DNA of 64,000 bases from Candidatus Bathyarchaeia archaeon (GCA_049512075.1 JBEKXL010000003.1:128001-192000); one strand, 5' to 3'; counted from the first letter of the stretch, positions 37,257 to 48,884 are shown. Notes: generated by a model from the sequence alone, not told the origin. Numbers and translations: made by a program.

Positions 37257-37398
37257 TGGTGGGGTCGCGCGGATTTGAACCGCGGACCTACGGGTTTCTC
37301 CGTGACAGCTCCAGAACTTCGTCATTCCAGCGTTCTGGTCAGCAAACCCGTTTCTACATTCTGGAGCCCGTCGTCATACCTGCCTAGACTACGACCCC
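37257..37398 (-). tRNA. tRNA-Trp(CCA) with 65-nt intron at 37/38
   Basis: Acceptor GGGGTCG/CGACCCC, anticodon stem ACGGG/CCCGT, T-arm CGCGG-TTCAAAT-CCGCG, encoded ACCA; intron 37296-37360. Confidence 0.96.
37296..37360 (-). ncRNA. intron-encoded box C/D guide RNA of pre-tRNA-Trp
   Basis: D' CTGA, C' ATGACGA; guides AACGGGTTTG and AGTTCTGGAG are complementary to the two exon-intron junctions, as in known archaeal tRNA-Trp introns. Confidence 0.75.
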
Positions 37399-37532: not shown

Positions 37533-37658
37533 GGGGTTTGCCGGTCATAGGGCGTGGGTCCCACCTGATCCCATACCGAACTCAGAAGTTAAACCACGTT
37601 CCGTTTCCGGTTGTAGTGTGGTCTTCGGCCATGTGAACCCGGGAAAGCTGGTAGCCCC
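37533..37658 (+). rRNA. rrf: 5S ribosomal RNA (stand-alone)
   Basis: CACCTGATCCCATACCGAACTCAGAAGTTAA core; terminal helix GGGG/CCCC. Confidence 0.96.
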
Positions 37659-46750: not shown

Positions 46751-47338
46751 TCAGAGTTCGTGCCTCATGACAGGTCGAGTCTCTGAGCGGCGAATGACCT
46801 CCAAGAACCCAGCCTTACGAAATGCCGAAGCGAGACCAGTATAGACGAATGGATCAGGAGGTCTCCAATCTTTCTTAGGTTCAACCGGGTATCCTTCAAC
46901 AATCTTGCCCTCTTGCCCTCTCACGTAGTCCACAGCCGCACCCAAGAGTCTCACACTCACTCCCTTGCCTCTGAATGCCTTGGCAACAAAGAAGCACACA
47001 ACTGACCACACAGGCTTATCATCAACCCGACTCAATATTCTCGATCGCTCCAGCCTTGGAAAAGCCTCTCGCGGTGCAACTGAACACCACCCAATCGGCC
47101 GGCCTTCTGAGTACGCGAGAATCCCAGGAACCTTGCCGGAATCCACTAGGCCTTTCAAAGCCTTCCTGTTCATTTCACCTCGCTGCCGCACAAAATCTGA
47201 GCGGGCTAACCTCCAGGACATGCACCAACAACCTCCGCATGCGCCACGCTGACCGAACAACTTCTCAACATCAGCCCACTTCTCACGCGTCAACGGATGA
47301 AACTCTAGAACCGAAACATCCCTTTCCTTATTGGGCAC
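46751..47338 (-). CDS. GNAT family acetyltransferase
   Basis: CGGCWC, GWCSVAPRE, CFFV...RGKG, EGYP. Confidence 0.88.
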   Translation of the reverse strand: MPNKERDVSVLEFHPLTREKWADVEKLFGQRGACGGCWCMSWRLARSDFVRQRGEMNRKALKGLVDSGKVPGILAYSEGRPIGWCSVAPREAFPRLERSRILSRVDDKPVWSVVCFFVAKAFRGKGVSVRLLGAAVDYVRGQEGKIVEGYPVEPKKDWRPPDPFVYTGLASAFRKAGFLEVIRRSETRPVMRHEL

Positions 47339-47409
47339 TCAGATCCCCAATTGTCTCGTTAGATGCGTAGGCATATGAGATCATTGAAACGCACGTTCAT
47401 TTATGATTT

Positions 47410-47731
47410 TTGCAAGGACCCTTGACTTAACCTGCTTGGACAAGTGGAGTGGGAGACAGTAACCCTTAACTTTTCAGCCGCTCCTTTCTTTTCTGGCGAT
47501 GACAGGAAATTGAGCCCTTCATAATCCCGCCGGCAAATCCACGCAGACGGACTCAACGGAAGAGGGCAAGCTTCACGCTTGCCGGTTCTTGTGATGGCGA
47601 GTTTACCCAAGCATGGGACACGGCGGGCGCGGGCCTAAAACCCTACGACGGAGAGAGCTTAACCTAGAGGGGCGCACCGCCCTACAGTGAAGTTAAGTGT
47701 TAGGTTACGTAGGAAACAAGAGGGCCCGCGA
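47410..47731. ncRNA. unassigned ~320-nt structured RNA-like element
   Basis: Nested helices GTAACC+CTTAACTT / AAGTTAAG+GGTTAC, CCCGCCG/CGGCGGG, GGCAAGC/GCTTGCC, GGGCG/CGCCC; no credible ORF. Confidence 0.6.
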
Positions 47732-47795
47732 AAACAACTCTTAAGTTCGTCATGTGCATACAGATAGGTAAAACCTGAAGCAGGCAGAGCAGAAT

Positions 47796-48884
47796 TTGGA
47801 CTTAGAAACAAAAATCGAGCTTGTGTGCAGACCGCCGACGGAAGAAGTCATAACCCCGGAAGACTTGCGGAAGCTTCTGGAGACTGAGCAGCATCCCATA
47901 GCCTACAACGGCTGGGAACCATCCGGTCTAGTTCACCTTGGAACCGGGCTGGTTTGCGCGTACAAGATGAAGGACTTCATAGAAGCTGGAATACACTACA
48001 AGGCTTATCTTTCCACGTGGCACGCTTGGCTAAACAACAAGATGGGCGGCGACATGAAACTCATAAGAAAAGCCGCAGACCTCTTCAAACACTCATGGAT
48101 AGCCCTGGGCGTTCCAGAAGACAAGATCGAATTCATCTACTCAGACGAACTCTACGACGACCTGAAATACTGGGAAAAAACGGTCATGGTGGCAAAAAAC
48201 CTCTCAATAGCCAGAGTAACCCGCACACTTGAGGTCGCGGGAAGACAAGAATCTGAAGCCAAGCACGTTTCAGACTACCTGTACACGCCCATGCAGGTAG
48301 CCGACATATTCCACATGGAAGTAAAAATCTGCCAACTCGGCATAGACCAACGCAAAGCCAACGTCGTAGCCCGAGAACTGGGCGAAAAGCTCGGATGCTG
48401 GAAACCCGTGTGCGTCCACCACAGCTACCTACAAGGCCTCGCGAAACCGCCCATCTGGCCTATTCCAAAAGAGAAAGAAAGAGAAATACTCTCATCAATA
48501 AAAATGTCAAAAAGCAAGCCCGAAACCTGCATATTCATCTACGACCCGCCTGAAGAAATCAAACAGAAAATCTCACAAGCCTTCTGCCCCGAAAAAACCG
48601 TGGAGTACAACCCAATCCTGGAAATATGCAAATTCATAATCTTCAGAGAAAACAAAACCTTCACCATACAGAGACCGCCCAAATTCGGCGGGTCAATCAC
48701 CTTCAACAACCTCAAAGGACTCCAGAAAACCTACGCAGACGGAAAACTGCACCCGCAGGATCTTAAGAACGCTGTGGCAGAAGAACTCGCAAGAATCCTT
48801 GAACCCGTCAGAAGATACTTCGAAGACAACAAAGAAGCAAGAGAATGCCTCAACGCGGTAAAAAACGCCAAAGTAACAAGGTAA
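47796..48884 (+). CDS. tyrS: tyrosyl-tRNA synthetase
   Basis: YNGWEPSGLVHLG, YTPMQVADI, GIDQRK, KMSKS, LHPQDLK. Confidence 0.97.
   Translation: MDLETKIELVCRPPTEEVITPEDLRKLLETEQHPIAYNGWEPSGLVHLGTGLVCAYKMKDFIEAGIHYKAYLSTWHAWLNNKMGGDMKLIRKAADLFKHSWIALGVPEDKIEFIYSDELYDDLKYWEKTVMVAKNLSIARVTRTLEVAGRQESEAKHVSDYLYTPMQVADIFHMEVKICQLGIDQRKANVVARELGEKLGCWKPVCVHHSYLQGLAKPPIWPIPKEKEREILSSIKMSKSKPETCIFIYDPPEEIKQKISQAFCPEKTVEYNPILEICKFIIFRENKTFTIQRPPKFGGSITFNNLKGLQKTYADGKLHPQDLKNAVAEELARILEPVRRYFEDNKEARECLNAVKNAKVTR

Follow-up and report, generated by a model that had tools for sequence, protein, structure and literature searches.

A conserved, apparently circular RNA encoded beside tyrS in Bathyarchaeia is probably a double-hairpin box H/ACA guide

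The GNAT-tyrS intergenic region

The window analysed here is a stretch of 64,000 nucleotides from a Candidatus Bathyarchaeia archaeon (JBEKXL010000003.1:128001-192000), whose genome, G000, is assembled in 86 contigs and is 99.76% complete. A gap of 457 nt separates the gene of a GNAT acetyltransferase from tyrS. It has no credible ORF and codes for a conserved structured RNA.

46751-47338 (-), GNAT acetyltransferase gene
47495-47747 (+), region encoding the conserved structured RNA
47796-48884 (+), tyrS, tyrosyl-tRNA synthetase gene (Pfam tRNA-synt_1b, E 1e-36)

A sequence-only reading of this DNA had proposed a structured, non-coding stretch upstream of tyrS, a description that is borne out. 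A small ORF starting at ATG 47499 was discarded because its frames stop after 2-8 codons in most relatives. The window also features a tRNA gene whose anticodon region is interrupted by 69 nt (37260-37398, -; Rfam tRNA, 50 bits), adjoining a 5S rRNA gene (37537-37656, +; 71.9 bits).

At Rfam 15 gathering scores, this 5S rRNA and this intron-bearing tRNA, near 37.3-37.7 kb, are the only matches in the whole window. The stretch coding for the RNA is empty, also when the search of 47300-47850 is extended to E<=10, and no Rfam match was found on 20 loci from outside the class. RNase P RNA and SRP RNA were rejected as identities since neither model matches in the stretch and both genes lie elsewhere in G000, at C3:197264-197570 (186.5 bits) and C20:30495-30808 (172.3 bits), respectively. 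The RNaseP-T model has no match in the stretch, its control being likewise silent everywhere. A T-box leader was also rejected, as there is no match to RF00230 or any other Rfam family at E<=10 and no conserved specifier codon: the UAC of GGUUAC varies to AUC, AAC, GAC, CAA and others, and the Tyr codon is not kept. The earlier view that this non-coding RNA is distinct from RNase P, SRP, T-box and group II RNAs thus holds, while the suggested likeness to raiA and group IIC RNAs is unsupported, with zero Rfam families at E<=10.

A split or odd tRNA-Tyr was considered and dropped. The sole tRNA(GUA) called by ARAGORN with default settings lies on contig C15 (43126-43226, -) and has a doubtful fold. 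It has G1-C72 and a long extra arm, its CCA is encoded, and it may be mis-called.

Conservation and distribution of the RNA

A blastn search with window positions 47390-47760 finds matches in 50 of 61 related genomes, down to ~70% identity and spread over 12 families of the order; within G000 it returns the self match only. A covariance model named R1 (208 positions, 40 pairs) was built from 26 loci. Among 151 genomes sampled from the class Bathyarchaeia it detects the RNA in 123, nearly always in single copy, and among the 151 sampled over the phylum in 46. The families with matches outside the class include f44 (8/15), f45 (8/8), f50 (3/4), f56 (3/3) and f60 (2/2), and R1 finds no RNA in, for example, f42 (0/13) and f47 (0/13) of the phylum sample. 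A pattern scan of public contigs yields 6 Bathyarchaeota records among the matches listed, most of the others being chance matches in high-GC bacteria.

Secondary structure

Folding of the single sequence is weak (z -1.79 for the plus strand and -1.45 for the minus strand). Because this folding energy is unexceptional, the case for a structure rests on comparison with relatives. Eight helices emerge from RNAalifold applied to 26 loci and from a model-based alignment of 64 matches. Paired cells amount to 94.8% and compensatory changes on both sides are found at 37 of the 40 modelled pairs, figures that are favoured by the fitting of the alignment to the model. None of 500 shuffles reaches any of five structure measures and slid controls are 36-46% paired. 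The helices, all of which covary, include:

47526-47532 with 47621-47627 (+), P_A, closing helix round hairpin 1, 7/7 pairs changed on both sides
47539-47543 with 47612-47616 (+), P_B, lower stem of hairpin 1, 5 bp
47552-47557 with 47596-47601 (+), upper stem of hairpin 1, two non-Watson-Crick positions
47628-47635 with 47723-47730 (+), P_D, closing helix round hairpin 2
47641-47647 with 47708-47713 (+), P_E, lower stem of hairpin 2, 6-7 bp, covariation
47658-47663 with 47692-47697 (+), P_F, upper stem of hairpin 2, 6 bp
47669-47674 with 47678-47683 (+), P_G, apical stem of hairpin 2, covariation

P_A corresponds to a pairing of CCCGCCG (47526-47532) with CGGCGGG (47621-47627) that had been spotted in the sequence. 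It is real and covarying, with AU 16, GC 7 and GU 3 at one pair and CG 19 and UA 6 at another. The hairpins GGCAAGC/GCTTGCC (47565-47571/47577-47583) and GGGCG/CGCCC (47669-47683), put forward in the same reading, correspond to the apical stem of hairpin 1 and that of hairpin 2, respectively. Two long-range pairings proposed alongside them are not kept in relatives. For GGACCCTTG (47418-47426) with CAAGAGGGCCC (47717-47727), the 5' partner is unconserved beyond the genus and the 3' partner GGCCCGCG is taken up in a different helix, with CGCGGGCC at 47628-47635, all 8 of 8 pairs being changed on both sides. For GTAACC plus CTTAACTT (47459-47472) with AAGTTAAG plus GGTTAC (47690-47708), the 5' side lies in a segment, 47455-47477, with the behaviour of a BRE/TATA promoter. 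The local partner of AAGTTAAG is CTTAAC at 47658-47663 (5/6 pairs covary), and the alignment of relatives contains no compensating change between GGTTAC and GTAACC. The partners of both long-range pairings are engaged in P_D and P_F.

P_A directly abuts P_D (G47627|C47628), and the two ends of the RNA thus come together as a nick within stacked helices.

Promoter, transcript and circular form

The gene and its products are delimited by the following features.

47455-47477 (+), BRE/TATA-like block of the RNA gene (GACAGTAACCCTTAACTTTTCAG), conserved as ACAGYAAYGTTTAATTTTTC
47495-47516 (+), 5' leader hairpin with k-turn consensus GGC-GAU-GA...GA-GCC, outside the circle, GGCRAUGA and NGAGCC conserved
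47526-47731 (+), mature circular RNA of 206 nt, back-joint in X3 and X4
47731-47747 (+), BRE/TATA block of tyrS (AAAACAACTCTTAAGTT), also 3' trailer of the RNA precursor, which probably ends here

The block at 47455-47477 is the putative promoter of the RNA gene. ACAGYAAYGTTTAATTTTTC is found ~20-25 nt ahead of the first RNA motif in 24 of the 26 aligned loci and, in L020 and L021 whose RNA is devoid of the 5' k-turn hairpin, it moves with the RNA 5' end, at the same distance before AUCCC. The 5' leader region spans 47495-47525. The leader of L030 carries a compensating change, CGC-GAU.../...GA-GCG, and L7Ae is predicted to bind the k-turn of this hairpin.

RNA data had been suggested as a means to establish strand and ends. 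The stretch is partly present in 13 RNA runs, and the metatranscriptome contigs examined, from four runs of four studies, cover 47503-47747 only. They start at 47503/47504 and the X1 contig ends at 47747. Summed contig depth rises to ~3100 in X4, a number that sums relatives too and is not an expression level. The four runs have no contigs over tyrS or before 47503, which is not evidence of absence.

An unambiguous back-joint 47731->47526 occurs in contigs of two runs from two studies (X3: side 90; X4: side 56; 'both' = 0). As the DNA is not arranged in tandem, the simplest reading of this joint is a 206-nt circular RNA. The circle starts where P_A starts and extends one A beyond P_D. An X4 contig has a loose end at 47718 that looks like the circular joint of a relative's RNA, a hint from that single contig.

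The RNA gene would be transcribed from its own promoter, with a start near 47495, to give a precursor that extends to ~47747. Trimming of this precursor and joining of its ends by a ligating enzyme would generate the circle 47526-47731, in which P_A and P_D are predicted to stack end to end with one hairpin on each.

Circular RNA with exact ends is also what an excised intron can leave behind. The RNA would then be a circularised by-product, cut out of a longer transcript by the tRNA-splicing endonuclease at a bulge-helix-bulge motif. Precedents given in the available part of PMC7714728 are a 46-nt intron in the 5' UTR of Haloferax HVO_1309 and an intron in cbf5 mRNA, and the cbf5 gene of G000 looks intron-split. 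However, a motif of 3-nt bulge, 4-bp helix and 3-nt bulge could not be drawn by eye at 47525|47526 and 47731|47732, in either arrangement and with three cut registers, and the ends are located where two stacked helices adjoin. A contig in which 47525 is followed by 47732 is also missing, but this is a weak point since contigs drop rare forms. Taken together, an origin of the circle as an intron is exceedingly improbable.

H/ACA anatomy and partner proteins

The two domains of the circle have the architecture of H/ACA hairpins.

47539-47620 (+), H/ACA hairpin 1, guide strands 47544-47551 and 47602-47611, apical stem 47561-47589, ACA 47618-47620
47559-47560/47593-47594 (+), GA pairs of the hairpin 1 k-turn
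47641-47718 (+), H/ACA hairpin 2, guide strands 47648-47657 and 47698-47707, ACA 47716-47718
G47689.A47666 (+), k-turn of hairpin 2, second sheared pair A.N and not A.G

In each hairpin a large internal loop separates the lower stem from the upper stem, which runs into a k-turn topped by an apical stem; the non-canonical stem of the k-turn faces the internal loop in both cases. In all 26 aligned loci an invariant or near-invariant ACA lies 3' of the lower stems, 1 nt after that of hairpin 1 and 2 nt after that of hairpin 2; AUA takes its place in hairpin 2 of one other family of the phylum. The extra closing helices P_A and P_D position the ACA inside an internal loop, a situation for which we know of no description in H/ACA RNAs.

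The upper stems count nine positions (G47593 to G47601 and G47689 to G47697) and the same count is 9-10 in archaeal H/ACA RNAs according to the accessible text of PMC7075261. PMC2377435, in the part available, describes an upper helix of 5-6 bp, a distance of 14-15 nt between ANA and target, a dominant 3' guide and tolerance of an unpaired UNN. The loop strands of 8 + 10 nt in hairpin 1 and 10 + 10 nt in hairpin 2 are inside the 5-11 nt of the Pyrococcus descriptor found there. The lower stems, 5 bp in hairpin 1 and 6-7 in hairpin 2, compare with at least 7 bp in that descriptor, which served to search a single genus and is not a definition of the family.

G000 codes for Cbf5 (337.8 bits), Nop10 (84.3), Gar1 (36.2) and two proteins of the L7Ae family (101.5 and 69.8), all above the curated cut-offs. 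In each hairpin L7Ae would bind the k-turn, and the lower stem with its ACA box would be the site of Cbf5-Nop10-Gar1. The cbf5 gene (C18:38731-39710, -, outside the window) lies in two frames, GHGGTL being followed after ~25-30 nt by NPKVTGVLPI. This interruption resembles the short intron that crenarchaeal cbf5 mRNA is known to contain, as cited in the part of PMC7714728 that is available.

Predicted rRNA targets and class assignment

The target search was a two-part scan in which 2-5 target nucleotides may stay unpaired, using the RNA of genome G052 against its own complete 23S rRNA; the 23S rRNA of G000 stops before the peptidyl-transferase centre. The best 23S match of the G052 3' hairpin is UAACUC[UGA]CUCUCUUAAG in the helix-69 loop, with 6+10 pairs, and 0 of 300 shuffled guides are as good. 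The best match of its 5' hairpin is CUGGGU[UUAGA]CCGUCG in the peptidyl-transferase centre, with 6+6 Watson-Crick pairs, and 11 of 300 shuffles are as good. An alternative hairpin 1 site in helix 71, GGGUAAG[UU]CCG, scores second. The 3' hairpin of the window itself has its best match in the G000 23S rRNA at GUAACU[CUGA]CUCUCUC, also helix 69, where 10.7% of shuffles score equally. Scanning with canonical geometry gives weak, non-significant matches, that of hairpin 1 being equalled by 30% of shuffles.

The invariant blocks of the family, GACGG, ACCCA and GAGAGAG, are the guide elements, and GAGAGAG is universal. Among 61 near-full-length matches complementarity is kept by the hairpin 1 guides in 60 and 57, by the 5' strand of hairpin 2 in all 61 (at least 6 bp) and by its 3' strand in 44 (at least 5 bp), counts that assume identical rRNA targets in all genomes. 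The variants GGUUAC, AGUUAC, AGUUGC, AGUUAU, AGUUACUU, GGUUACUCU and GAGUUAC of the hairpin 2 3' guide all pair with GGAGUAACUC. The other 17 homologues have no 5-bp match of this guide to helix 69: ten keep only GUUA and seven less, the latter mostly from the GGUAUC group within the window's own family.

The guide nucleotide that pairs with U2584 or U1915 sits 13 nt before the ACA, which places the unpaired U's at n+14/15. The target nucleotides left unpaired would number 4-5, versus the canonical UN. To our knowledge, there is no documented H/ACA exception with 5 unpaired target nucleotides. The exceptions documented in the source texts available are an unpaired UNN (PMC2377435) and UNUN.

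The loop of the 3' hairpin would thus be expected to pair with both sides of the helix-69 loop, GUAAC(U) and CUCUCUC, leaving U-C-U-G(-A) unpaired such that the equivalents of U1915/U1917 can be isomerised to pseudouridine. The 5' hairpin loop would pair with (C)UGGGU and CCGUC(G) in the peptidyl-transferase centre, with UUAGA, including the U2585/U2586 equivalents, left unpaired.

Based on its anatomy and complementarity, the RNA is probably a double-hairpin box H/ACA-type guide sRNA. The label of unknown class given to it earlier is not maintained, since both lines point to box H/ACA pseudouridylation guides; most likely it is no new class but an unlisted member of this known one, absent from Rfam. 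A role as H/ACA guide for Psi35 of tRNA-Tyr, for which Muller et al. 2009 is reportedly the source, was rejected: the universal CUGUAAA loop has no complement in either pocket, as compared by eye without a trustworthy tRNA-Tyr gene.

Some properties would also suit an L7Ae-binding RNP that does not make pseudouridine, either a circle that pairs with the helix 69-71 and peptidyl-transferase regions of pre-23S rRNA as chaperone or scaffold, or an atypical C/D-like RNA. The k-turns resemble C'/D' motifs (CNGA ... RUGAUGG) with their non-canonical stem towards the loops, 4-5 unpaired target nucleotides are atypical for H/ACA guides, and extra closing helices and a circular topology are non-standard for them. 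However, a C/D-box RNA was rejected for lack of a box D at guide distance, and no 12-nt guide beside CNGA matches rRNA contiguously (by eye). The invariant ACA 1-2 nt past both lower stems, the nine-position upper stems and the n+13 register agree with H/ACA rules, and the pair of predicted targets is identical to that of a proven H/ACA RNA. Such a k-turn RNP is therefore considered unlikely.

Linkage to tyrS

Linkage to tyrS, which had been singled out for verification, is real and very wide. tyrS adjoins the RNA in 26 of 30 order-level loci, in 19 of 20 distant class-level loci (L202 has no tyrS neighbour) and in 13 of 20 loci outside the class. RNA gene and tyrS are convergent in L195 (G141) and divergent in L208 (G146), whose RNA copy is short (151 nt, 53.5 bits). 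A literature search of partial coverage returned no account of the Bathyarchaeia RNA nor of a link between H/ACA RNAs and tyrS.

In the window's order, the BRE/TATA of tyrS (AAACAACTYTTAAGT, block AAACAACTTTTAAGT) is located 40-55 nt before the TTG start codon, even when the RNA is 300-800 nt off. Since this promoter stays with tyrS, the RNA and tyrS are separate units in this order. The suggestion that the RNA is a tyrS leader is accordingly unsupported in G000, where tyrS has its own promoter and the RNA contigs end at 47747. AAACAACTTTTAAGT is followed, 10-14 nt on, by GCATA(G/A)AA (window 47731-47790 and relatives), an arrangement whose conservation within the order is unusually high, and TTG is the start codon of almost every tyrS gene there.

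The organization of family f44 is distinct. In L211-L214 and L223 the 3' hairpin ends 14-25 nt ahead of the tyrS Shine-Dalgarno/start codon, leaving no space for a separate promoter, and is preceded by a TATA-like run. Co-transcription of hairpin and tyrS is thus likely in this family. A conserved block (...AGCGATGAAC...GGCTTAACCCACACCCGCAACAG...) is found ~40-90 nt before the 3' hairpin in L210-L214 and L223. With k-turn, ACCCA and ACA, it resembles the 3' half of hairpin 1 in a diverged state, and is separated from hairpin 2 by an AT-rich, TATA-like spacer. The two hairpins of f44 may be produced as separate transcripts.

The H/ACA reading gives no explanation for the phylum-wide adjacency to tyrS. 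This adjacency and the position of the f44 hairpin would be accounted for by a cis-acting regulator, where the RNA or its 3' hairpin, as part of the tyrS transcript, controls TyrRS synthesis via TyrRS, tRNA-Tyr or L7Ae. Such a role is, however, difficult to reconcile with a tyrS promoter that is conserved in the window's order and kept when the RNA is distant, or with the convergent and divergent genes of L195 and L208. Neither a Tyr codon nor a complement to NCCA is conserved in the loops, there is no T-box match, and the circular joint excludes the mature RNA from the mRNA. It is very unlikely that the RNA acts in this way.

Integrative elements in the RNA gene

The RNA gene is interrupted in G013, G021 and G025, which belong to three genera, by elements of ~5-6 kb.

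L154:2155-8385, integrative element of G021
L155:244-5317, integrative element of G013
L156:1009-5943, integrative element of G025

The host gene is split after GGGTTTACCCAA(A) and resumes 5-6 kb on at (C)GGGTTTACCCAA beside tyrS. The insertion point is the 3' guide of hairpin 1, with core GGGTTTACCCAA, which forms a short direct repeat flanking the element. Each insert opens with a protein of 320-338 amino acids that matches Phage_integrase (E 1e-14 to 1e-21), a tyrosine recombinase; the other cargo ORFs have no Pfam match. In addition, every element has a full-length, diverged copy of the RNA (134.8-154.1 bits), equipped with a TATA of its own. In these copies P_A and P_D are altered on both strands (e.g. 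GUCUCAC/GUGAGAC), all helices are kept by compensation and the four guide blocks are kept.

tRNA and tmRNA genes are integration sites of elements with tyrosine recombinases. The elements described here resemble those integrations in the use of a conserved stable-RNA gene as target and in the short direct repeat that flanks them. They differ in that the gene is split mid-way and is not rebuilt at the junction, the element bringing instead a complete diverged copy with its own TATA. If the element copies are functional, the element replaces, rather than repairs, the essential-looking gene that it disrupts, and integration into an RNA gene with replacement copies is a new twist on the theme of tRNA-gene integration. 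We know of no earlier case of an H/ACA guide RNA on an integrative element. The elements would bear their own ribosome-modification guide RNA and, with the circular topology and the tie to tyrS, the locus may be a small hub of both regulation and evolution and not a plain guide gene; we regard this reading as a whole as rather doubtful.

Comparison with known H/ACA guide RNAs

The pseudouridines of helix 69 and of the peptidyl-transferase centre are among the most conserved rRNA modifications. Their origin is unannotated in Bathyarchaeia and related uncultured archaea, and the locus supplies a candidate guide for them. The model R1 finds this guide RNA in most genomes of the class and lets annotators fill an 'empty' intergenic region of 250 nt. 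Unusual traits of the RNA are its circular two-hairpin form, the helices beyond the ACA, the k-turn leader, the 4-5 unpaired target nucleotides, its use as integration site and the tie to tyrS. With its mature circle, additional closing helices and long unpaired target, the RNA would widen the range of forms of H/ACA guides.

The closest parallel in targets is sR-h45 of Haloferax, whose 3' stem-loop SL2 guides helix 69 and whose 5' stem-loop SL1 guides the peptidyl-transferase centre, according to the accessible part of its description. Both RNAs are ~200 nt long and consist of two hairpins that have a k-turn and an ANA/ACA box apiece. As in sR-h45, the 5' hairpin would address the GGGUUUAG site of the peptidyl-transferase centre (Psi2605 in Haloferax), and the 3' hairpin the helix-69 loop (Psi1940/1942 in Haloferax) with more than 2 target nucleotides unpaired, sR-h45 using an atypical UNUN. 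The predicted unpaired stretch in Bathyarchaeia is 4-5 nt compared to this UNUN, the likeness being judged from published descriptions. In contrast to the Bathyarchaeia RNA, which is circular, linker-free and has an extra closing helix per hairpin, sR-h45 is linear with a linker of 56 nt between the hairpins, as far as the same source text goes.

The Pyrococcus H/ACA sRNAs Pab21, Pab35, Pab40, Pab91, Pab105, Pab160 and Pab19, as described in the available portion of PMC2377435, share with the Bathyarchaeia RNA the succession of lower stem, pocket, upper stem of 5-6 bp and k-turn or K-loop, and an ACA placed 14-15 nt from the target U, a predicted target in Bathyarchaeia. This comparison is by description and orthology is not claimed; the lower stem has at least 7 bp in the Pyrococcus descriptor and 5 in hairpin 1 of the Bathyarchaeia RNA. 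A circular H/ACA guide RNA is known in the same phylum from Sulfolobus solfataricus, sR109 (PMC3326292, part of the text). That RNA has 70 nt and one hairpin, and the circle is its minor form, whereas the Bathyarchaeia circle holds two hairpins.
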